Positions 3,115 to 13,859 of a DNA stretch of 64,000 nucleotides are shown in pieces. Made by a program: the position numbers and the translations under genes. The stretch comes from Planctomycetota bacterium (lineage in GTDB: Bacteria; Planctomycetota; UBA1135; UBA2386): positions 2,746-66,745 of the forward strand of contig DASRJH010000031.1 of NCBI GenBank assembly GCA_035649575.1, given 5' to 3'. Each line of letters opens with the position of its first letter. Within the stretch, counting starts at the first letter, position 1. The notes beneath the pieces were generated by a model. That model was not told where the DNA came from. It searched no databases and worked only from the letters and a program-made list of their open reading frames with translations.

Positions 3115-3297
3115 TGCGGCGAGACCTGGCACACCGTGCAGGATCTCTTTGCCACGCACGCGAGTTCACCATCCGCGTGTGAATGGCCGGTGACGCCGGC
3201 GTGAAAACTACACGCGCTTCGACGACGCGATTCGTCACTGCGTCGGGGAACGCCCGTGCGTGCTCGGCGCCCAGGCGTAGGCTTGCTCGGCCACCCG

Positions 3298-4674
3298 ATG
3301 AGCACACGAACCATCCCGGTCGCACGCGACGATCGCCTCGAGGTCGACATCGAGGGCCTCGGCGACGGACCCGACGGCATCGCCCGCATCGGCAACTACG
3401 TGATCCTCGTGCCCGGCGTGCTCCCGGGCGAACGCGCCTACGTGCGCATCACGTCGGCAGCGCGCAAGTTCGGCCGCGGCGAGCTGCTGGCCGTGCGCAA
3501 GGCCGCTCCCGAGCGCGTCGCGGCGCGCTGCCCCCACTTCCTGGCCTGCGGCGGCTGCCATCGCCAGCACCAGGACTACGGAGCACAGCTGCAGGACAAG
3601 CAGCAGCGTCTGCAGCGCGCGATCACGTGGGCCCTCGGCGACGAAGCTCCCAAGGTCGCGCCGCCGATCCCCGCGGAGCCACCGTTCGGCCAGCGCCACA
3701 AGGTCGTCGTGCACCTGCGCAACACGCGCGACGAACGCCTCGAGGCGTGCTTCCATCGCCTGCGCAGCCCCGAGCTCGTCGCCGTGCGCGAATGCCCGGC
3801 GAGCCAACCGCGGGCGTGGGCGATCGCGATGGCTGCGGTGGCCCTGCTGCACGAGCTGCCGCACGGCGCATGGGATCCCGACTTCGCGCCGAACGACCTG
3901 CTGCGCAGCGTGCTCGTGCGCACGACGATGACGGGGCAGGCCCACGTCGTGCTCGTCGCGCGCCAGCCCATGATCCCTGGCCTCGAGCGCGTGCTCGACG
4001 ACCTGCACGAAGCCGGCGCGACGACGATCAGCTGCAACGGCAACGACGGCGAGTTCTCGCGCCTGCTCGGTCCACAGACCACGATCGTCTCGGGACCACC
4101 GCGCATCGAAGAACGGCTGCTCGAAACGCACTACCTGCTCTCCCCCGATACGTTCTTCCAGACCTCACCCGAGGGCGCCGAGCACCTCGTGCGCCTCGTC
4201 ACCGAGTGGCTGGCGCCGACGAGCCAGGACGACGTCGCGGATCTCTACTGCGGCGGCGGCCTGCTCACGCTGCCGCTAGCGCGCACGGCGAGGAGCGCGC
4301 TCGGCATCGAGCTCAGGACCGCGACGATCTCCGACGCCGAGGCGTCCGCGCGCAGAAACGGCCTGCGCAACGTGCAGTGGCGCTCGGGTCACGTCGAGAG
4401 CTGGCTGCGCGCGTGCCGCCACGGGCAGCTGCCCCGCCCCCACCTCGTCGCGATCGATCCGCCGCGCACGGGGCTCGAGCCCGTGGTCATCGACGAGCTG
4501 TGCCTGCTGCGGCCGCGCCGCATCGCCTATGTCTCGTGCGAACCACGCGCGCTGCAGCGCGACCTGCAGGCACTCGCGACTGCAGGTTTCCGCACGCGGT
4601 CCGTGCAGCCGATCGACATGTTCCCACAGACCGCCCACATCGAGGCAGTCGCGATGCTCGAACGCAGCACGTGA
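3298..4674 (+). CDS. rlmD: 23S rRNA (uracil-5-)-methyltransferase, RumA/RlmD family (TRAM domain, Fe-S cysteine cluster, SAM-dependent methyltransferase)
   Basis: MSTRTIPVARDDRLEVDIEGLGDGPDGIARIGNYVILVPGVLPGERAYVRI is TRAM-like. CPHFLACGGCHRQH is the Cys cluster. DLYCGGGLLTLPLA is the SAM motif. C-terminus YVSCEPRALQRDL..DMFPQTAHIEAVAMLERST. ATG 3298 chosen over the track start 3256. Confidence 0.85.
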   Translation: MSTRTIPVARDDRLEVDIEGLGDGPDGIARIGNYVILVPGVLPGERAYVRITSAARKFGRGELLAVRKAAPERVAARCPHFLACGGCHRQHQDYGAQLQDKQQRLQRAITWALGDEAPKVAPPIPAEPPFGQRHKVVVHLRNTRDERLEACFHRLRSPELVAVRECPASQPRAWAIAMAAVALLHELPHGAWDPDFAPNDLLRSVLVRTTMTGQAHVVLVARQPMIPGLERVLDDLHEAGATTISCNGNDGEFSRLLGPQTTIVSGPPRIEERLLETHYLLSPDTFFQTSPEGAEHLVRLVTEWLAPTSQDDVADLYCGGGLLTLPLARTARSALGIELRTATISDAEASARRNGLRNVQWRSGHVESWLRACRHGQLPRPHLVAIDPPRTGLEPVVIDELCLLRPRRIAYVSCEPRALQRDLQALATAGFRTRSVQPIDMFPQTAHIEAVAMLERST

Positions 4675-4684
4675 GAAACAGCGC
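4657..4684. repeat. attL-type core (direct repeat copy 1), covering the last rlmD codons and its TGA stop
   Basis: Exact 28-bp match to 10842-10869, read directly from the sequence. Confidence 0.85.
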
Positions 4685-4794
4685 GTAGGGCCGCTTTGCC
4701 CTCAGTTCTCAGCATTCTAGTGTTACGTGCAGGAGCGTGCAAGAGCGTGCACGAAGAGGCGCGAGAAGTGGACAGTTTCGGCCGATTTGGACAG

Positions 4795-5745
4795 TCACTG
4801 TCCACTCGGCGAGGACGGGCCACGAGCACCCAGTCGGTGCTCGATCACCGGTCGGAGATCCTTCGCCAGCTGCTCGGGCGTCTCCCACACGATGTGCAGC
4901 AGCTGGCGGGTATCGAACGGCAGCTTGCCGAGCTCGCCCTTGCGCACGGTCCAGATCACAGGTTTCCCGAGGCCTTCAGCGAAGCCGGCTTCGTACATGA
5001 CGCTGGCGCTAACGCCTGTAGCATCCGCAACCATGGCACGCGACCGACGAATCGCGACGAGGATGTGGGCGTCGATGCGATCGCCGTGCGCCGGTTCTCG
5101 ATCGACGCGCAGCGGTGAGTAGCCGGCACTGCGGATGCCCTTGCTCAGACCGTTGTCGTAGACGTCGCTCATAGAAGAATCGAACCACATGGCGACGAAG
5201 ACACGGTCGTTGCGCAGCGGCGACTTGTCGATCTCCTCCAGATGGAGGTAGCCGGCAAAGGTGAGTCGCACTCGGAGTAGGCCGTCTTGGGGGTCAATCC
5301 CGAGGCTCTCGAGGCGCCCCTGCTGGACGGCCGCGGCGACGAGGAACAGCATGTCCTCGCGTCCTCCCGTCCACACCAAAGCGGCATCGGTCTTCAGGTT
5401 CAGAGGAACCGCGTCGTTGAGAGTGTTGCTGCGCGACTCGACCAGACGGAGAAGCATGTCGAGCTGCTCGCGCACGCCATGCTCAGGCAGCCAGGATCTG
5501 AGACTGTCGAGCGATTCAGCGAGAGACGGGTATCCTGACTCGCGATTGTTCCGCTGCATTCGGAGCCACGCGGACAGGCGTGGCCATGCATCGAACCTGG
5601 GATCCCGTCCAAGCTCCTCCACCATGTCGCGGTGCAGCAAGAACAAGCCGCAGCGGGAACACTCGAAGCACTCGAGCGACAGGTCCGACGAGGATATGGT
5701 GTCCGCGGACTCCCAACAAACTGGGCACTTGCTGGGATGCTTCAT
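4795..5745 (-). CDS. Zinc-ribbon protein with a C-terminal nucleoside 2-deoxyribosyltransferase-like (NDT/TIR-like Rossmannoid) domain; candidate effector or toxin
   Basis: ATG 5745 overlaps the TGA of the upstream ORF (ATGA). MKHPSKCPVCWES...ECFECSRCG gives two CxxC pairs. C-terminus RVFVAMWFDSSMSDVYDNGLSKGIRSAGYSPLRVD...ILVAIRRSRAMVADATGVSASVMYEAGFAEGLGKPVIWTVRKGE...LPFDTRQ matches the FVAMxF...ADxT...YExGxAxGxGKPVI pattern of NDT-like domains. Confidence 0.75.
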   Translation of the reverse strand: MKHPSKCPVCWESADTISSSDLSLECFECSRCGLFLLHRDMVEELGRDPRFDAWPRLSAWLRMQRNNRESGYPSLAESLDSLRSWLPEHGVREQLDMLLRLVESRSNTLNDAVPLNLKTDAALVWTGGREDMLFLVAAAVQQGRLESLGIDPQDGLLRVRLTFAGYLHLEEIDKSPLRNDRVFVAMWFDSSMSDVYDNGLSKGIRSAGYSPLRVDREPAHGDRIDAHILVAIRRSRAMVADATGVSASVMYEAGFAEGLGKPVIWTVRKGELGKLPFDTRQLLHIVWETPEQLAKDLRPVIEHRLGARGPSSPSGQ

Positions 5746-5891
5746 TTGTCGCCAGCACTGCCCTCGCCCGGCATGGCCATCCGCCCAGGGGAATCGACGG
5801 CGCCTACACCCAGGCGCGCCCGCCGCACCCACGTCTTCGCGGTGCCGCGCGGGATGTTGAGCGCTGCAGCCTCGAGTGCGCGGGCGCTCAT
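5742..5891 (-). CDS. Small (49 aa) helix-turn-helix protein, excisionase/MerR-like (HTH_17-type pattern)
   Basis: ATG 5891 overlaps the antitoxin TGA (ATGA at 5888-5891), and its own TGA overlaps the next ATG (5742-5745). MSARALEAAALNIPRGTAKTWVRRARLG resembles the LGVSRSTVYRWVRxGRL-type HTH. Short ORF, so moderate confidence. Confidence 0.55.
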   Translation of the reverse strand: MSARALEAAALNIPRGTAKTWVRRARLGVGAVDSPGRMAMPGEGSAGDK

Positions 5892-6091
5892 GGCCTTGCC
5901 TTGCCTGCCTTCGTGGTCCTCGGCTTCGGCATGGTGAACGGCTTGCCCTCGAGTCGCTCGAAGTCGGCCAGCGGCACGAGGGCGAACTTCGGACGGCCGC
6001 GGTGCGTGCAGACCACGCGGGCGCCTGCGACGACAGCCTGCGCGACTTGCGTCAGATTCCACCGCAGTTCGTCGGCCGGGATGGTCTTCAC
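5888..6091 (-). CDS. Phd/YefM-family type II antitoxin-like protein (67 aa)
   Basis: VKTIPADELRWNLTQVAQAVVAGARVVCTHRGRPKFALVPLADFERLE follows the Phd/YefM consensus (xTVsaxEaRxNLxxxxxxVxxGexVxITRxGkPvAvLVsxxeyErL). GTG 6091 has AAGG 9 nt upstream. The longer track ORF (to 6526) has an Arg/Pro-rich, junk-like N-terminus. Confidence 0.7.
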   Translation of the reverse strand: MKTIPADELRWNLTQVAQAVVAGARVVCTHRGRPKFALVPLADFERLEGKPFTMPKPRTTKAGKARP

Positions 6092-6367
6092 TCGCCGCAA
6101 CCTTAAGGTTCCGCGGAACGCCGTCAATCCCCTGGTCGCGATTCCGTCTCGTCGCGCGCCCCCGCTTGGCGAATCCTCGTCGCCGGGGCTACTCTGCCGG
6201 CAGCACACCGCGGCCCGCTCGGCTTCACCCGGCGCCTGGGAACTGAGGTTGCCGGGCGGCCGCGCACCTCCCGGACGTAGGCATGCGTCGTGGTCATGTC
6301 CCTCCCTTGACGTCACGGCGAGGCCTGCTAGCTTCCGCGGCTCACAGCCACAAACGAGGAGGCACGA

Positions 6368-8335
6368 ATGATCTCGTCTCTGAGCGGTCTTGGTGCGGTG
6401 GTCTTGCTGGCTTCGCTGACCTCGGCGCAAACACCGCCAAACTACTATGTGAGCAACGGAGGCAGCGACACCAACCAGGGATCGATTCAGGCACCTTGGG
6501 CGACTCTCGGCAGGGTCCGGCAGCACGCGGATGACCCTACGAAGGGTTTCGCCGCTGGTGATTCAATCAATCTGGAACGCGGCAGCTCGTGGACCGACGA
6601 ACTGCTCATTTTGCCGAACCCAAGCCCAACTGCTAATTCGAATAGCGGCACTTCGGGCAGCAAGATCCGCCTGCAGGCCTATGGCGTTGGGCCGGCTCCG
6701 GTCATCAAGGGACTAGTTCAGCGCGTCGGCACCCGCGTCCAGCTGCGCAACGTCGAGCACTGGATCATTAGCGGTCTTCGCTTCGAAACTTCGCACCATG
6801 GGGTCCTCCTGTCCAACTCTACGACGCCCCACACGGTCCTTCACGGTGTCGAAGTGCACAACTGCTACTTCAAGGATATGGATGATCGCGGCAATTCGTT
6901 TACCAATTGTGGTATTCTGATCCACGGCTCGGCCCAGCAGGTTGACTGGCAAGACATCAGCATCAGCAACTGCATCTTCGACACTGTGTCAAACGGTGTG
7001 AGTAATGTTGGGTCCACCAACAACATCAGCATTGTCGACTGCGCGGCTTTTGGTGGCCTGTCCGCTGGCTTTTCACTTACCCATGTAGCGGGAGGTACTG
7101 TGGCTGGGTTCAGTGTTCGTGATGTTGGCGGAACCAGTTCGTTTGGGTCTTGTGGCGCCGCCTTGATCTTATGCGACGATGTAATAGTCACCGACTGCTC
7201 GATCTCCGGCGTCCGACACGATGGTGGCCTTGACGGCGTCGGATTTGATTTTGAGGCGGGCTGCAGGAACTGCACCTTGCGTCGCAGTTACATTTTCAAT
7301 AATGAGGGTGCTGGCATCATGGTCATGAGCGGGAACACCTTGCCGCTACAACACAATAGCTCACTCGTCATCGAGGATTGTCTACTGTACAATAACAACA
7401 CCCGTTATCAGCTTCCAGGGGCACCCGGCTTTCCCGCTGTAAATTCGGAACTTTTGTGCTTTCATGCGCTGAACAATGGCGTCATGAGAAACGTTGGTGT
7501 CTACAGGAGAACTACTACTACAGCTACCTACAACCACTTCAGCACCAATTGGGGCGGCTTCACAATAGAACCTAGTGTCATCACGGGTGATTACTGCGTC
7601 GGATGGAAACCTGTCTATGGAAAGTTCTCGCAGCTGGACGTTGGGGGCAATGGAAACATCGTCGGTGTGGAAGCTGGTAAGGTGCTTGTGTGGACCCGTG
7701 AATTCCTGGGCAATTGCTGGACCAACGTCACAGGTAACTTTGGCCCGTTCCTCAGCGCTAGTATCGGTTGCGACGGTGTGTTGTGGGCCGTTAAGAACGA
7801 CTTCTCCGTATGGGGGTACGATGGAGGCTTCAATTGGAGTACGCGAGGAACTGTGGCAATGAAACAGATTTCCGTCGGGCAACTCCCCCCGTTCACCCCT
7901 CCTCCCACTGTGATGGAAGACAATGTTTGGGGGATTGATACGCAGAGTACACCCCAAACCTGGAGATGGAACCAGTCGTTGTTGCCCACTCCTGCTTGGG
8001 AGTGGGTCTCTGGGAACACCACTCAAGTCGATGCTGCCGCAACTAGAGGCGAAGGTGCCTGGGCTGTTTTTGCATCCCAACAGCCGCCATTGGTCTATCG
8101 TATCCAGAATCCTCCCACCCAAACATGGCAGCAGGTAACTACACAGCCGCTCGACCAAGTGTCCAGCACGAACTTCAATGCTGCCGTCGGGGTATATGGA
8201 AATGCCGTCTGGCTGACAAGGGATGGGGGAGTGTCATGGTCTCAGCTTCCGGGCCAGCTAACTCAAGTCGCCGAGGGAAGTGATGGTGCGCTGTGGGGGT
8301 TGGACGCGAACGGGCACGTTTGGAGATTCAATTGA
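6368..8335 (+). CDS. Secreted right-handed beta-helix (pectate-lyase-fold-like) protein with a C-terminal tectonin/TECPR-like beta-propeller repeat region
   Basis: GGAGG lies 7 nt before the ATG. Signal peptide MISSLSGLGAVVLLASLTSAQ. N-terminal YYVSNGGSDTNQGSIQAPWATL plus periodic N/C/I-rich rungs (VHNCYF, ISISNCIF, ISIVDCAA, VIVTDCSI, CTLRRSYIFNNEGAGI). C-terminal W-rich repeats (VLWAVKNDFSVWGYD, NVWGIDTQ, NAVWLTRDGGVSW, GALWGLDANGHVWRFN). A/T is frequent at third codon positions, unlike neighbouring genes. Confidence 0.8.
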   Translation: MISSLSGLGAVVLLASLTSAQTPPNYYVSNGGSDTNQGSIQAPWATLGRVRQHADDPTKGFAAGDSINLERGSSWTDELLILPNPSPTANSNSGTSGSKIRLQAYGVGPAPVIKGLVQRVGTRVQLRNVEHWIISGLRFETSHHGVLLSNSTTPHTVLHGVEVHNCYFKDMDDRGNSFTNCGILIHGSAQQVDWQDISISNCIFDTVSNGVSNVGSTNNISIVDCAAFGGLSAGFSLTHVAGGTVAGFSVRDVGGTSSFGSCGAALILCDDVIVTDCSISGVRHDGGLDGVGFDFEAGCRNCTLRRSYIFNNEGAGIMVMSGNTLPLQHNSSLVIEDCLLYNNNTRYQLPGAPGFPAVNSELLCFHALNNGVMRNVGVYRRTTTTATYNHFSTNWGGFTIEPSVITGDYCVGWKPVYGKFSQLDVGGNGNIVGVEAGKVLVWTREFLGNCWTNVTGNFGPFLSASIGCDGVLWAVKNDFSVWGYDGGFNWSTRGTVAMKQISVGQLPPFTPPPTVMEDNVWGIDTQSTPQTWRWNQSLLPTPAWEWVSGNTTQVDAAATRGEGAWAVFASQQPPLVYRIQNPPTQTWQQVTTQPLDQVSSTNFNAAVGVYGNAVWLTRDGGVSWSQLPGQLTQVAEGSDGALWGLDANGHVWRFN

Positions 8336-9259
8336 TGGGTCATCCGGAAGTCGCGTTGGTAGCTGAGGCCAACTGATCTTTGGTTGAACTACTGCGCCGA
8401 AACGAGCGACGACGTAGTGCCAGTCCCAACGGAACGAGCCGGCGCCGTCGCGGCGGAATCTGCTGGGCACGAACTGAAGCCGGCTCGACGCCCGCACGCT
8501 TGGCACGAGAATCTTCTCCTCGTCGACACCAAGGTCCGGAATTGGCTCCTCTGGCGGGCCTGGATCAGCGGGCTTGGGGATCACACGCTGCAGCTCGAGC
8601 ACAGCCTTCGTCACGGTGTCGCTGCACAGTTCGGGATCGCGCTCGAGTTCGCGCAACGGCGCAGCATTGCCGCCGACCGCGAACACGGCGGCGATGGCTT
8701 GGGGCACGAACACACGGAAGCCAGTCCGCAGACCCCACACGAGCTCAAGTCGTTCGTCGATCGGGCTGCGACGGATCACGGGCTCGCTCTGGACCGTGAC
8801 GCCATGGACCTCTCGACGGGCTCGCTTCCGCCCCGTCCGTCTTTCCCACTCCGCCGTCAGGCGCTCGCGAGCAACTTCTGCAGGATGTCGAAGCCGGTAG
8901 CGAAACGGAGAGCGCGCCGAATCATCGGTTCGGTCGTCGTCGCCCGGATCTTCGGCATCAACGCGCTCATGCTGGTCGCGTCCGGTGGTCCTGATGTAGC
9001 CGGGCCATGGCGCGGCGCGCGCGCTGATCTGGCTCCCCGTCCATTGGTTTTCATCGTCTGGATACCGCTCCCACGGCGCGAGCGACTCCAGCATGCACAA
9101 CAGATCGGCCACAGCCCGAGCCGGCGTCGGCCGCACGAGTTCGCTGCCGTCGTTGTCGACGAACACCTCGAACCCTTCCGGCAACGCCGGCCGCGCGATC
9201 GCTGCGGGCTGCGGTGCCGGCACCGTCGCGGCCCCGCGCCTCTTCTTGCTGTTCGCCAT
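8258..9259 (-). CDS. Hypothetical protein immediately downstream of the integrase (island-borne)
   Basis: Coding-like composition with no recognisable motif. ATG 9259 (MANSKKRRGAATVP) preferred. The last ~45 codons run antisense through low-GC DNA and overlap the 3' end of 6368..8335 by 78 nt, so the native C-terminus may have been replaced. Confidence 0.5.
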   Translation of the reverse strand: MANSKKRRGAATVPAPQPAAIARPALPEGFEVFVDNDGSELVRPTPARAVADLLCMLESLAPWERYPDDENQWTGSQISARAAPWPGYIRTTGRDQHERVDAEDPGDDDRTDDSARSPFRYRLRHPAEVARERLTAEWERRTGRKRARREVHGVTVQSEPVIRRSPIDERLELVWGLRTGFRVFVPQAIAAVFAVGGNAAPLRELERDPELCSDTVTKAVLELQRVIPKPADPGPPEEPIPDLGVDEEKILVPSVRASSRLQFVPSRFRRDGAGSFRWDWHYVVARFGAVVQPKISWPQLPTRLPDDPSIESPNVPVRVQPPQRTITSLGDLS

Positions 9260-9365: not shown

Positions 9366-10667
9366 CTAGCTCGCTCCCACGATCTGGTCGAGCACGCGCA
9401 CCGCGCGAACCTGCTCGGCGGCGCTGCTGTGATAGTAGCGGCTCGTCGTCGCGATGTTCTTGTGGTTCGCCGCGGCCGACGCGGCCGCGATGCCCGCCTC
9501 GTTCACGACGCGCGTGACGGCGGTATGGCGCAGTTCGTGGTTCGTGAAGTCCTCGACGCCGGCCTTCGCCGCTGCGATCTTCACGTGAAGCCGATACGCC
9601 ACGGTGTTCCAACGGTCGTTGAAGCGTCGCCGCATCGGTTGCTTGCGACGCCGGCCGGCCGCGTGGCGGTCGGCCATGCGCTTGGCCGGCGAGAAGATGA
9701 AGGCCTTCGGCAGCGCCGGGAAGCGCTCGAGGATCGCTTGCGCCTCCTTGCCGAGCAGGTAGCGCGTGACATGCCCCAGGTGCTCGGTCTTTGCGCCCTC
9801 GACCGTGTAGATCCAGGTGCCGTTGGGGCCGTTCTTGTTGATGTCCGCCCAGCGCATCAGGCAGACGTCGCCGGGCCGCATCGACGTCTTCAACTGCAAC
9901 CGCATCATCGCCGCGACCTGGCTGCAGCAGTGCGCGGCGACCAGCTCGATGTCTTCCACGGGCACCGCGCGCCGGGCTCGCTTCCCGTGCTCCGGCCGGC
10001 CGGAGCACTGGCCGGGCTTCAGGTTCGACAAGCTGGCGCAGTCGAGCCACACCGGCTTCGGCACGAGCCCGCGCGACTCGCCCCACCTCAGCATGTCCTT
10101 CACGAGCCAGACCCATCGGTTGATCGTCTTGCGCACGTGGTCGGGGTAGTCGGCTTCGATGCGGTCCCGCCAATGCACCAGCAGGGCTTCCTTCAGCCGG
10201 CGCACCGGCACGGCGCCGGCGAACTCCTCGAACAGCGTCAGCACGCGGCGAGTCAGCCGCCGGCGTGACGTCTCCTTGCGGTGCTTCAGGAAGCGGCCCG
10301 TGGCGACGATCCACGCCTGGTACTGCGCCGACAGCTCGCGCACCGTCAGTATCGCCTCGTTTGCAGTGATCGCACGCGGCCCGATCGGCTCGCGTCCATT
10401 CTCGTTCCACTCCTCGAGCAACTCCGCGTAGCGCTTGTGCGACGCCGGAGTGCCCCAGACGCCGAGGTAGTGCGTCTTGCCGTTGAGCCGCACCCGGGCT
10501 TGCCCCGAACTGTGCTTCGTCATCTTCGGCAACCGAGACGTCGCGCCCCTTGCCTTCTCAGTCGTCGCCGTCGTGCCGTTGTCATCCGCGCGCATGCCGG
10601 TGCAGTCGAGCGAATCGACGGCACACGAGGGCGCGCCTTCGCGTCCCTTCGAAGTGATCTTGACCAT
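9366..10667 (-). CDS. Tyrosine-type site-specific integrase
   Basis: N-terminal ARVRLNGKTHYLGVWGTPASHKRYAELLEEW is typical of the integrase arm-binding/SAM-like region. Catalytic elements MRPGDVCLMRW (Arg), HELRHTAVT (HxxR) and NHKNIATTSRYYH (His...Tyr). Alternative starts at 10595 or 10523 are possible. Confidence 0.9.
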   Translation of the reverse strand: MVKITSKGREGAPSCAVDSLDCTGMRADDNGTTATTEKARGATSRLPKMTKHSSGQARVRLNGKTHYLGVWGTPASHKRYAELLEEWNENGREPIGPRAITANEAILTVRELSAQYQAWIVATGRFLKHRKETSRRRLTRRVLTLFEEFAGAVPVRRLKEALLVHWRDRIEADYPDHVRKTINRWVWLVKDMLRWGESRGLVPKPVWLDCASLSNLKPGQCSGRPEHGKRARRAVPVEDIELVAAHCCSQVAAMMRLQLKTSMRPGDVCLMRWADINKNGPNGTWIYTVEGAKTEHLGHVTRYLLGKEAQAILERFPALPKAFIFSPAKRMADRHAAGRRRKQPMRRRFNDRWNTVAYRLHVKIAAAKAGVEDFTNHELRHTAVTRVVNEAGIAAASAAANHKNIATTSRYYHSSAAEQVRAVRVLDQIVGAS

Positions 10668-10794
10668 CGCCTTGGCCTCGATTTGGACAGTCGACTGTCC
10701 ACTTTGGAGGAGGCGGTGCTACGCCTCGCTTCTCACTCCACGCGCAACGCGCGACGCGGAACCGAGCTGCGTTCGTCGTTCTGGAGCACGTCGC

Positions 10795-10859
10795 AGCTCG
10801 ACATGTTCCCGCAGACCTGCCACGTAGAGGCCGTGGCGTGCCTCGAACGCAGCACGTGA
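10795..10859 (+). pseudogene. Diverged duplicate of the rlmD 3' end (island-side arm of attR)
   Basis: Encodes ..LDMFPQTCHVEAVACLERST* versus the genuine ..IDMFPQTAHIEAVAMLERST* at 4618-4674. There are three amino-acid differences in the last 19 codons, and no methyltransferase body lies upstream. Confidence 0.7.
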
Positions 10860-10869
10860 GAAACAGCGC
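10842..10869. repeat. attR-type core (direct repeat copy 2)
   Basis: Exact 28-bp match to 4657-4684. Confidence 0.85.
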
Positions 10870-10896
10870 CGAAAGCCGGTTCACCCTCGTCACCCC

Positions 10897-11627: not shown

Positions 11628-13859
11628 TCACCGCGCCACGCACTGGGCTAGAGCAGTCAGGAAGTCCTCGGCCCAGGTGATCGCCGTCGTGCGGCCGACC
11701 GCGGCGAGCAGCCGCGCGTGGCGCGAGCGCCGCTCGTCGCCGTCCATGCGCAGCGCGCGGTCGAGGTCGCGCGCGAGCCCGTCGCAGTGCCAGGGATTCG
11801 TCAGCACCGCGTCGCCGAGCTCGACAGCGGCGCCGGCAAACCGCGACAGCACCAGCACCCCCGGATTCGCAGGATCCTGCGCGGCGACATACTCCTTCGC
11901 GACGAGGTTCATGCCGTCGCGCAGCGGCGTCACGTAGCCGACCGCGGCGGCGCGATACAGCAGCGCGAGCTGATCGTGGCTGAACGCGCGATACAGATAC
12001 CGGATCGGCACCCAGTCGGCGTCCCCGAACTGGCCATTCACGCGGCCGACGATCAGCTCGACGCGTTCGCGCTGTTCGACATACTCCGGCACGTCCCCGC
12101 GCGACGGCACCGAGATCTGCACCAGGCTCACGTGGCGCCGCCACTCCGGCTGCAGCTCGAGCAGCCGCGCGAACGCGGACAACCGCTCGGGGATGCCCTT
12201 CGTGTAGTCGAGGCGGTCGACGCCGAGCACCATCTTGTTCGGCGCGATCGCGCGCATCAGCTTGTCCACTTCGTCCATGCTCGCGGCGTCCGCGGGCTCC
12301 TGGAAACGCTCCGGGATGATGCCGATCGGGAACGCGCCGACGCGCGTCCGGCGGCCGCGGAGCTCGACGACGTCGTCGCCGACGCGCGTGCCTGGCAGCG
12401 CCGCGGCGCACTCGCGGAACGCGCTCGCGTAGCCGGGCGTGTGGAAGCCGATCAGGTCGAGCGACAGCATCGCGGTGAGGAGCTGCTCTGCCCACGGCAG
12501 TACGAAGAACACGTCCGGACCGGGGAACGGCACGTGCAGGAAGAGACCCAGTGGACCGGTGTGGCCGCGCCGCCGCAGCCGGTCGCCGAGCAGCAGCAGG
12601 TGGTAGTCGTGGATCCACACCGCGTCGCCGGCGCCGACGAGCAGCTGCGCGGCGTCGGCGAAGCCGTCGTTCGCCTGCTCGTACGCGGCCCAGTCGCCGT
12701 CGGCGATGCGCACACGTGTCGGGAACGAGTGCAGCAACGGCCAGAGGGCGCTGTTGCAGAAGCCGTTGTAGTAGTCGCGGCGCCACGCTTCGGGCAGGTC
12801 GACCCAGGCGAGCTCGGGTTGCCCGGTGTCGTCGAGCCCGAACTCGGTGATGCCATCACCCGGGGCCGTGCGGCCGCTCCAGCCGAGCCAGATGCCCTGG
12901 CGCGCGCGCAGCGCCGGCTCGAGCGCGGACACGAGCCCACCGACGTTGCGCTTGCCGCCGTCGCCGTGGTTGTTGGAGCGCAGCTCCGGCAGCCGGTTGG
13001 ACACGACCAGCAGCCGGTACGACCTCGCGGCGGCGGCCGGCCGGCGCTGTACGGGCACGGGCATGGGCTGCAGCTCCGCGCCCGGCGTGCCGCCGCGCAC
13101 CGCGACCAGCGAGCGCAGGAACTGCCGCGCCTCGCGTGGAGCGTCGAGCCGCCAGCGCGCCGCGGTCGCGCGGGTGCGGTCGTGGCCGACGGCGATCGTC
13201 TCGCCGTTGCCGTGCACCGCGCGGAACATGTCCTCGTCGGTCACGTCGTCGCCGATCGCGAGCAGCCGGCACCCGGCGCCGGCCTGGTCGCGCAGCCAGG
13301 CCAGGGCAGTCGACTTGTCCATGCGAGAGGGCCGCACCTCGACGACGCGCGCACCTCGCAGCTCGTGGAACGACGGATGCGACCGCAACCACGCCTCGAT
13401 GCGGCTGCCCACCTCGACCAGCGCGGCTTCGCGGTCGGCACGTGCGATCGCGCGGTAGTGGAAGGCCACCGACCACGTCTTGCGCTCGACGATCGCGCCG
13501 GGATGGCGCCGCGCTGTGCGTTCGAGCTCTTCGGCGAGGTCGGAGACCTCGTCGCGCGAAGCGCCGGCGAACTCCTCCCACGCGCCGCGGCCGCGCCGCC
13601 ATCCACCGTGCTCCGCGACGAGCGCCAGACCGTCGACGCCGCCGAAGAAGGTCTCGAGCTGCTGGCGCGGCCGGCCGCTGACGATGGCCGCGACGATCCC
13701 CGGCGCGCGAGCGACGTCCGCGACGAGCTCGAGCAGTTCGGCGTCGGGGCTCGCTTCGGCCGGCGTCGCCGCGAACGGCAGCAGCGTACCGTCGAGGTCC
13801 ATCACGACGCAGAGCGGCGACCACCGCGCGAGCGCGAGCCAGTCCTGCGCAGCGGTCAC
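11628..13859 (-). CDS. otsBA: Bifunctional trehalose-6-phosphate phosphatase (N-terminal HAD, OtsB-like) / trehalose-6-phosphate synthase (C-terminal GT20, OtsA-like)
   Basis: N-terminal VVMDLDGTLLP (HAD DxDGT) and AIGDDVTDEDMF. GT20 part RLLVVSNRLP..GGLVSALEP..WLGWSG..FCNSALWPLLH..IHDYHLLLL..LGVDRLDYTKGI..DGMNLVAKEY. Confidence 0.9.
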   Translation of the reverse strand: MTAAQDWLALARWSPLCVVMDLDGTLLPFAATPAEASPDAELLELVADVARAPGIVAAIVSGRPRQQLETFFGGVDGLALVAEHGGWRRGRGAWEEFAGASRDEVSDLAEELERTARRHPGAIVERKTWSVAFHYRAIARADREAALVEVGSRIEAWLRSHPSFHELRGARVVEVRPSRMDKSTALAWLRDQAGAGCRLLAIGDDVTDEDMFRAVHGNGETIAVGHDRTRATAARWRLDAPREARQFLRSLVAVRGGTPGAELQPMPVPVQRRPAAAARSYRLLVVSNRLPELRSNNHGDGGKRNVGGLVSALEPALRARQGIWLGWSGRTAPGDGITEFGLDDTGQPELAWVDLPEAWRRDYYNGFCNSALWPLLHSFPTRVRIADGDWAAYEQANDGFADAAQLLVGAGDAVWIHDYHLLLLGDRLRRRGHTGPLGLFLHVPFPGPDVFFVLPWAEQLLTAMLSLDLIGFHTPGYASAFRECAAALPGTRVGDDVVELRGRRTRVGAFPIGIIPERFQEPADAASMDEVDKLMRAIAPNKMVLGVDRLDYTKGIPERLSAFARLLELQPEWRRHVSLVQISVPSRGDVPEYVEQRERVELIVGRVNGQFGDADWVPIRYLYRAFSHDQLALLYRAAAVGYVTPLRDGMNLVAKEYVAAQDPANPGVLVLSRFAGAAVELGDAVLTNPWHCDGLARDLDRALRMDGDERRSRHARLLAAVGRTTAITWAEDFLTALAQCVAR

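Follow-up and report, generated by a model that had tools for sequence, protein, structure and literature searches.

The window analysed here, a stretch of 64,000 nt from the metagenome-assembled genome (MAG) of a Planctomycetota bacterium (GCA_035649575.1, contig DASRJH010000031.1, positions 2,746 to 66,745), contains a small integrase island of ~6.2 kb seated in the 3′ end of a rumA/rlmD-like gene. Within this island lies a single gene of conspicuously low guanine-plus-cytosine (GC) content, the 655 aa product of which, P0001, combines an N-terminal right-handed β-helix with a C-terminal tectonin propeller. The low-GC DNA starts 18 nt upstream of the ATG and stops 58 nt past the stop codon; as these boundaries enclose just a Shine–Dalgarno (SD) site, the open reading frame (ORF) and a hairpin, the segment is regarded as a one-gene cassette. 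The features of the cassette, and of the gene at its right edge, are as follows (window positions).

6350–8393, no strand: low-GC cassette (SD site, ORF and 3′ hairpin), delimited by change-point scan
6356–6362, + strand: SD sequence GAGGAGG, 5 nt before the ATG, read from the sequence
6368–8335, + strand: ORF of P0001, 655 aa, the sole long ORF with a coding-like pattern in the low-GC stretch
6368–6427, + strand: predicted Sec signal peptide, residues 1–20 (MISSLSGLGAVVLLASLTSA, followed by Q), with a hydrophobic core and then T-S-A
6431–7582, + strand: right-handed β-helix, the putative catalytic domain, residues ~22–405 (Pfam PF13229, family profile, Foldseek)
7232–7255, + strand: candidate catalytic motif D289-G-V-G-F-D294-F-E296 (DGVGFDFE), from family conservation
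7595–8332, + strand: six-bladed tectonin β-propeller, residues 410–655 (Pfam PF19193, profile, Foldseek)
8355–8373, + strand: terminator-like hairpin past the stop codon, within low-GC DNA, a consensus match only
8258–9259, − strand: island backbone gene, 333 aa, with its native C-terminus replaced and its last ~57 codons antisense to the cassette

No alternative in-frame start is present among the 12 open codons upstream of the ATG at 6368, and terminator-like sites around 8355–8373 are no commoner than in shuffled sequence.

P0001 is built like a modular carbohydrate-active enzyme (CAZyme), with a catalytic module followed by a lectin-type binding module. Pfam assigns Beta_helix to residues 124–330 (E 9e-13) and Tectonin to residues 514–653 (E 3e-14), both above the curated cut-offs, and AlphaFold2, run on a 27-sequence alignment, gives a model with a predicted local distance difference test (pLDDT) score of 89.5 and a predicted template-modelling score (pTM) of 0.89. 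An earlier note on this DNA, made from its letters alone, had proposed a signal peptide, a β-helix and a tryptophan-rich, tectonin-like C-terminus, and all three are recovered here. The signal peptide is plausible, given a hydrophobic N-terminus ending in T-S-A before Q, the disorder of residues 1–17 in the model (pLDDT <50) and the comparable hydrophobic leader that all homologues display ahead of the conserved YY[VI] starting the β-helix. Neither a lipobox nor a C-terminal sorting signal occurs in P0001, which is predicted, from its sequence, to be exported by Sec. The protein contains 14 Cys residues. The β-helix is borne out by Pfam, AlphaFold2 and Foldseek alike.

With regard to the identity of this β-helix, a profile of the family matches chains of glycoside hydrolase family 136 (GH136; 7v6m, 6kqs, 7v6i and 5gqc) at E 1e-29 to 2e-24, and the best Foldseek matches in the PDB are likewise GH136 structures (6kqt, 6kqs, 7v6m and 5gqc, E 3e-13 to 2.5e-10), with lyases, C5-epimerases and tailspikes ranking below them. 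The catalytic half scores negative in the family-profile match to GH136 chains, and a profile of this half alone retrieves no GH136 chain, only AlgE4 and pectate-lyase coils; phmmer returns nothing relevant. Elsewhere, the β-helix module is found fused to GH127, dockerin, CBM9 and F5/8 type C domains, partners that are typical of a catalytic CAZyme module. P0001 shares with LnbX (Bifidobacterium longum, 5gqc), ErLnb136 (Eubacterium ramulus, 6kqs/6kqt) and TnX (7v6m) a common right-handed β-helix, the same N-terminal cap (YYVSS..G.D.N.G.S...P..T) and a D-G-x3-D-x-[DE] motif in what is probably the equivalent helix region, with the 7-residue spacing of the acid/base and nucleophile of GH136. It differs from them in that fold-level identity is just 15–17 %, the putative nucleophile is Glu rather than Asp, the GH136-I/LnbY helper domain or gene is missing, a tectonin propeller is added, and the gene resides on a mobile island of an environmental high-GC host rather than in a gut milk-oligosaccharide or mucin locus; lacto-N-tetraose is therefore an unlikely substrate of P0001.

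In the 27-sequence alignment D289, G290, G292 and D294 of the candidate catalytic motif are invariant and E296 nearly so, D289 and D294 being the sole invariant acidic residues, although this alignment consists in part of loci that were retrieved with the pattern DGVGFDFE, such that conservation of the motif there is circular. For this reason 60 HMMER matches that had not been selected by pattern were examined, and 58 of these carry D-[GA]-x3-D-x-[DE] at the equivalent place, in one copy each. Variants include DGQAFDYE, DGQSFDFE, DGGAYDID and DACGIDID, with Asp at the last position in some. The counterpart in the LnbX chain 5gqc is DGQAWDAD, with the same spacing, to which DGQAFDYE and DGGAYDID form a bridge; the catalytic pair of LnbX, which we take to be D411/D418, fits indices 382 and 389 of this chain once an offset of 29 is applied. 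ErLnb136 shows the same 7-residue step from its acid/base, D568, to its nucleophile, D575 (PMC7335108). In one hhalign alignment, collinear over 109 columns, DGVGFDFE falls on DGQAWDAD (P 0.012).

By model score and fold, the C-terminal domain clearly belongs to the Tectonin domain family. It reaches 53.3 bits against PF19193, for which the cut-off is 30, and a six-frame search of the genome also exceeds this value (37.4 bits). In the model, 24 strands between residues 405 and 654 form six four-stranded blades, the last of which includes the W-rich repeat GALWGLDANGHVWRFN (residues 640–655), whilst blade 3 harbours a low-confidence insert of 14 residues (505–518) that is unique to P0001. The family profile matches Tectonin 2 of Laccaria bicolor (5fsb) across the whole propeller (E 9.5e-28), and Foldseek gives for this pair a template-modelling (TM) score of 0.87 and a root-mean-square deviation of 2.5 Å. 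Papers cited in PMC6359319 describe Tectonin 2 as a defence lectin for O-methylated glycans, and its site 6 uses Ser200, Asn216, Tyr222 and Trp3 (PMC6359319). A blade-by-blade reading of the alignment finds the equivalents of Trp3 and Tyr222 to be aromatic (Trp or Tyr) in all six blades of P0001; at the position of the hydrogen-bonding Asn216, blades 3 and 6 have Asp, blade 1 has Glu and the others have Lys, Phe or Tyr. By these residues, two or three sugar sites look competent, and the propeller would probably act as a lectin, with a specificity that may differ from that of Tectonin 2.

P0001 thus resembles Tectonin 2 (5fsb/5fsc), which binds O-methylated mannose and fucose, in its six four-stranded blades and retained aromatics, and differs from it in its low identity (22 %), its degenerate blades and the insert in blade 3. 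Moreover, Tectonin 2 is a free fungal lectin, whereas the propeller of P0001 is a domain of a putative bacterial enzyme. Carp fishelectin (4ruq/4rus) and other animal tectonin lectins have the same propeller fold (TM 0.78), yet are only 13–14 % identical and are stand-alone lectins of innate immunity. The earlier note had remarked that such propellers are better known from eukaryotes; the likeness to tectonins stands, and there is no sign of a eukaryotic donor, as the nearest repeats occur in large bacterial surface proteins. A eukaryotic origin was considered and rejected, given that the seven family loci are all on gene-dense bacterial contigs, that the SD site is strong and that the nearest tectonin repeats are bacterial. 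The proteins harbouring these repeats (P0012–P0015, 1043–1829 aa) contain 13–14 tectonin-like stretches that are 42–49 % identical to the repeats of P0001, together with DUF7948, SBBP, DUF1573/ASH Ig-like or pro-kumamolisin domains, and constitute a large, as yet uncharacterised group of tectonin-bearing surface proteins in bacteria.

Taken as a whole, we consider, with a probability of roughly 70 %, that the locus represents one intact, horizontally acquired gene for a secreted GH136-type β-helix hydrolase that employs a tectonin propeller as its carbohydrate-binding module (CBM). In such a scheme, a single-gene cassette would have inserted secondarily into a small integrase island in the 3′ end of the rumA/rlmD-like gene, and its product would leave the cell via Sec. 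The GH136-type β-helix would then hydrolyse a glycosidic bond by means of a carboxylate pair, in which D289 would serve as acid/base and E296 as nucleophile, with D294 next to them, whilst the rigidly attached propeller would bind carbohydrate and hold the enzyme on its target glycan. That glycan may possibly be a methylated or otherwise decorated microbial surface polysaccharide or exopolysaccharide. The data establish the outlying composition, the limits of the cassette, its island setting, its absence from relatives, the two folds and the family-wide conservation of the motif; export, hydrolysis in preference to lysis, the roles of the three acidic residues, lectin activity and the kind of glycan are inferred.

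A number of observations weigh against this reading. The significant sequence match to GH136 is limited to the N-terminal ~230 profile positions (~20–250), hhalign with a shorter template picks another register or coil (P 0.003), and pairwise alignment of the catalytic half to GH136 is no better than that of shuffled sequences. As the hhalign registers disagree and the pairwise alignment is non-significant, the assignment of D289 as acid/base and E296 as nucleophile is likely but unproven. Characterised GH136 enzymes need the helper GH136-I/LnbY (PMC7335108), which is absent from P0001 and from the genes of the island, the mature protein beginning directly at the β-helix cap. With no helper domain, and with no significant similarity over the catalytic half, P0001 is termed GH136-type rather than a member of GH136. 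Within the propeller, the WG[LI]D...VWR[WF] pattern is retained in blades 3 and 6 only, where Asp takes the place of Asn216 and Trp that of Tyr222, and the n-region of the signal peptide lacks a basic residue. Amino-acid composition accounts for ~40 % of the GC deficit of the gene, and there is no close donor, the best relative being 42 % identical and P0001 itself long-branched. Finally, the family is rare and biochemically uncharacterised.

Of the other explanations, that with the most remaining merit, albeit with a small chance of being correct, holds that P0001 is a non-catalytic adhesin or lectin toxin, with the β-helix as no more than a rigid stalk and the function residing in the propeller, which would bind glycans on prey, on predators (nematodes, amoebae) or on surfaces in the manner of Tectonin 2. 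Many β-helix proteins are indeed structural, a defence-like TIR/NDT-like gene is likewise present on the island, and the propeller is close in fold (TM 0.87) to what the papers cited in PMC6359319 present as a defence lectin. Such a stalk is, however, difficult to reconcile with the invariant acidic residues of a diverse β-helix family being confined to one motif with the catalytic spacing of GH136, with the fusion of related β-helix modules to CBMs, dockerin and GH127, and with the sugar-utilisation contexts in which genes of the family are found.

A slim chance is also accorded to the possibility that the β-helix belongs to a polysaccharide lyase, or to a tailspike depolymerase of phage origin, and acts by β-elimination; the earlier note had likened the fold to that of such lyases and depolymerases. 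P0001 produces a weak Pel9A-like Pfam match (PF22842) and a match to the NCBIfam PelN model over residues 11–133 (E 6e-7) that is far under the cut-off (28.6 vs 740 bits); Foldseek retrieves the folds of polysaccharide lyase families PL9 and PL6, rhamnogalacturonan lyase and tailspikes at E 1e-7 to 1e-5, and β-helix proteins of uncultured phages in BFVD at E 2e-13 (TM 0.47), which are generic fold matches. The PelN and Pel9A-like matches arise because the N-terminal cap is common to PL9-type lyases, and the PelN-type match is confined to this generic cap, whereas GH136 structures rank first in Foldseek. As for chemistry, the 27-sequence alignment offers no invariant Lys, Arg or His to serve as a lyase base, and the positions of the catalytic Tyr and His in the YGFDPH motif of AlgE4 are Val and Glu in P0001; from residue conservation, both points argue against lyase or epimerase chemistry, such that hydrolysis would be favoured over lysis. 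Pel9A (1ru4), CBA120 TSP2 and the P22 tailspike share with P0001 a generic β-helix and cap, but at TM 0.2–0.35 and 8–16 % identity, and P0001 has no trimerisation or virion-attachment module, viral relative or conserved lyase base. Kinship with phage depolymerases thus gives way to GH136 hydrolases as the nearest structures. A phage origin of the gene is similarly unsupported: a scan of 2.9 million viral contigs returned no relative, and the island is without phage structural genes.

The foreign character of the gene within its genome is apparent from its composition. In 400 nt windows GC is 0.68–0.73 outside, and 0.51–0.57 inside, the region ~6400–8400, and the maximal GC deficit detected by a change-point scan spans 6350–8393, with 55.2 % GC. 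The ORF itself (6368–8335) has 55.3 % GC, with 54, 49 and 62 % at the first, second and third codon positions, respectively. The genome (a MAG of 6.0 Mb in 349 contigs, 82.6 % complete) has 68.7 % GC overall, its 2 kb windows having a mean of 68.7 % and a standard deviation of 2.1 %; the cassette is the lowest of these windows across all 349 contigs, ~13 points below the mean, with none other as low. Amongst 10,867 genome ORFs of ≥200 aa the gene ranks second-lowest in GC, the ranking being on frame-independent GC, not on GC at third codon positions (GC3), in a greedy ORF set that includes wrong-frame ORFs. The GC3 of 0.62 compares with 0.85–0.92 in flanking host genes (0.89 for rumA, 0.92 for otsBA) and 0.73–0.91 in other island genes (0.91 for the integrase and 0.73–0.84 for the rest), leaving it 23–30 points under the host genes. 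The impressions in the earlier note of a low-GC segment at ~6368–8400 and of frequent A/T in third codon positions are thereby confirmed. The island backbone has 66.5 % GC, and the cassette is compositionally apart from both backbone and host. Part of the deficit nonetheless stems from the protein itself, in which Asn, Ser, Thr, Gly and Trp abound and Ala, Arg, Glu and Leu are scarce, as re-encoding it with host codon preferences still yields only 63.2 % GC; the 13.4-point deficit can accordingly be split into ~5.5 points of amino-acid composition and ~8 points of codon choice (~40 and ~60 %, respectively).

Direct evidence for insertion of the cassette into a pre-existing element, with disruption of a backbone gene, comes from the right junction. 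Homologues of the 333 aa gene are 268–287 aa long, and the C-termini of P0156, P0157 and P0159 share QKRTTIK...QTGNRGxYRL, a segment that is missing from the island gene. In an alignment of these proteins the last invariant column is G274, and from ~276 (nt ~8431) the island gene continues into an unrelated tail of 57 residues, with the break point ≤~40 nt from the GC boundary. As the right junction thus cuts the conserved C-terminus of the backbone gene, the cassette is seen as a secondary insertion, although one cannot tell whether its entry predates or postdates the arrival of the island in this host. Neither the low-GC gene nor the 333 aa backbone ORF was found in relatives (for the low-GC gene, 60 genomes, of which 4 belong to the host genus, 32 to the host family and 24 to the host order), and the low-GC gene has no paralogue in its own genome. 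A six-frame search located the Tectonin family nowhere else in this genome, and Pfam Tectonin occurs in 3 of 300 other sampled genomes of the phylum. The separate acquisition envisaged in the earlier note is therefore upheld by composition, junction and distribution together. At the two edges of the cassette, the heptamer AAACGAG occurs at 6353–6359 and 8401–8407 (~0.2 expected by chance); as this pair could easily be chance, it is not claimed as a target-site duplication.

That the gene has long been resident, and owes its low GC to unusual amino-acid composition and weak codon selection without any transfer, is very improbable. Composition by itself does bring the expected GC down to 63.2 %, and the family gene is 6–10 GC points below its flanks in all six loci with high-GC flanks. 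Against this, the one family locus with 38 % GC (L034) deviates upward, with a gene that is 7 points above its flanks and has a GC3 of 0.47 vs 0.28–0.36, which amino-acid composition cannot explain. Nor does residency account for the position of the gene in an att-flanked integrase island, its absence from the same-genus, same-family and same-order genomes, its GC3 in comparison with host genes, or the truncation of the adjoining backbone gene at the junction. Viewed across all seven family loci, in hosts of 38–70 % GC, the gene is shifted toward ~55 % GC in each case, a recurrent mismatch that fits a gene moving between hosts, and which, with seven loci, is only suggestive.

Mis-assembly or mis-binning, by which a low-GC gene would have been joined to a high-GC contig of a fragmented and incomplete MAG (349 contigs, 82.6 % complete), is barely credible, as the gene is >6 kb from both contig ends and the same gene, both junctions and the same neighbours recur in four independent assemblies (ERZ27257732 and ERZ27257649 from ENA; SRR5585388 and SRR5582436 from Logan) from different runs and assemblers, 99.98–100 % identical to the window over 5.3–12.4 kb, whose agreement shows that the arrangement is not a chimera.

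The island that carries the cassette displays direct repeats at the 3′ end of a gene, a tyrosine recombinase and absence from relatives, the customary marks of an integrative element. Its further features are as follows.

3256–4674, + strand: rumA/rlmD-like gene (TRAM/U5-methyltransferase), which hosts the island in its 3′ end
4608–4703, + strand: attL, within the rumA/rlmD-like 3′ end, with a 28 nt exact core, CTCGAACGCAGCACGTGAGAAACAGCGC
5888–6091, − strand: Phd/YefM-family gene, the first of a divergent three-gene operon (TIGR01552, E 6e-10)
9366–10667, − strand: tyrosine recombinase (integrase; Pfam Phage_integrase, E 4.6e-15)
10793–10888, + strand: attR, a diverged copy of the rumA 3′ end

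The attL and attR sites form a 96 nt direct repeat, 80 % identical, with a start-to-start spacing of 6185 nt. Between them lie the Phd-like gene, a mini-ORF, the TIR/NDT-like gene, the low-GC gene, the 333 aa backbone gene and the integrase; the Phd/YefM-family ORF is called as a gene in four assemblies. When the flanks of the island are joined, they match relatives over the rumA half only, the downstream flank not being conserved there. A full-length homologue of the truncated 333 aa gene, P0159 (L048:1754–2599), is located behind a 548 aa gene at the start of a far larger element with ~12 small genes, which also has a gene for an HTH/Peptidase_M78 protein, and the island in the window looks like a heavily reduced relative of this L048 element. 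Short copies of the rumA 3′ end or att site (25–72 nt) also exist apart from the complete gene, in this genome (C55:1563–1587 and C252:7269–7302) as well as in relatives (G002:C186:4990–5057, G001:C369:80–140, G003:C306:52661–52721 and G008:C11:10812–10871), which suggests that other elements use the same rumA attachment site in this lineage.

With regard to the distribution of the family, a HMMER search over 1.84 billion cluster representatives produced 901 matches at E ≤1e-3, of which only ~8 clusters, all on bacterial contigs, display the full architecture. Seven such proteins (P0008, P0009, P0002, P0010, P0011, P0018 and P0030) are 29–42 % identical to P0001, are 614–668 aa long and are collinear with it over both domains, P0001 being the most divergent and the only one with the blade-3 insert; P0024 is a longer variant with PKD and FG-GAP domains. 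One member, P0002, bears the JGI label ‘parallel beta helix pectate lyase-like protein/tectonin-like protein’. The fusion is present in none of 185,579 species-representative genomes. A scan of this genome collection with P0001 alone gave no match, whilst one with a 4-sequence alignment recovered β-helix-only relatives in Planctomycetes, Pirellulales, Sumerlaeota, Verrucomicrobiota, Cohnella and Paenibacillus. The tree does not fix the place of P0001 within the core clade, where it occupies the longest branch (1.36), and for this reason no donor is named. It is also the sole copy of the family seen on an integrase island. A β-helix relative, 32 % identical over residues 64–380, is encoded at L006:8001–8951, on a 3.7 Mb scaffold of a MAG labelled Promethearchaeota, and reflects either inter-domain transfer or a binning problem.

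The neighbourhoods of family genes are of several types, one with an extracytoplasmic function (ECF) sigma factor, a Ser/Thr kinase and sulfatases, another with an AraC regulator, an MFS_2 sugar transporter and N_methyl/DUF1559-type genes, and a third with a methyltransferase–glycosyltransferase family 2 (GT2) fusion and a nucleoside diphosphate (NDP)-sugar epimerase. The last is seen at the P0018 loci (L031:5587–7020, and L032:2266–3672 and 3814–4872), where the S-adenosylmethionine (SAM)-methyltransferase/GT2 fusion adjoins the family gene and is followed by an NDP-sugar epimerase/dehydratase. These neighbours could make a methylated glycan, which is intriguing as tectonins bind O-methylated sugars, in what is one member on three contigs.

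A bolder extension of the hydrolase reading, which we consider unlikely in its full form, is that P0001 belongs to a new, horizontally mobile clade of glycoside hydrolases, targeted by tectonin to methylated or otherwise decorated glycans of microbes, folding independently of GH136-I, using a Glu nucleophile and travelling as an interphylum cassette. A self-contained cassette moving between phyla would explain why GC is displaced toward ~55 % in all seven loci. Tectonins are free lectins of innate immunity in fungi and animals that recognise O-methylated sugars, and we know of no enzyme with a tectonin as its CBM; no published description of a tectonin-appended glycosidase was found. Likewise, GH136 is, to our knowledge, known only from gut bacteria, where it cleaves milk and mucin glycans with the aid of a dedicated chaperone. 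If correct, this would be the first known case of an enzyme directed at tectonin ligands, and a GH136-type enzyme that is targeted by a tectonin and needs no chaperone would broaden both families and offer a handle on an environmental glycan, possibly a methylated one. The locus is in addition a clean example of nested acquisition, with a one-gene cassette in a minimal integrative element and a backbone gene broken on entry, and the GC mismatch that recurs in every known member of the family suggests that the gene travels. Practical value is modest pending a substrate.

Beyond the window, other strongly low-GC stretches are found in the same genome at C173:2000–8000, C301:1500–5500, C245:5500–11300 and C94:16300–20000. 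These have 56–61 % GC, each with several ORFs of 200–800 aa, and are probably further foreign DNA. Just outside the island, at 11628–13859 on the − strand, a single 743 aa ORF encodes a fused trehalose-phosphate phosphatase and glycosyltransferase family 20 (GT20) synthase, as assigned by Pfam.

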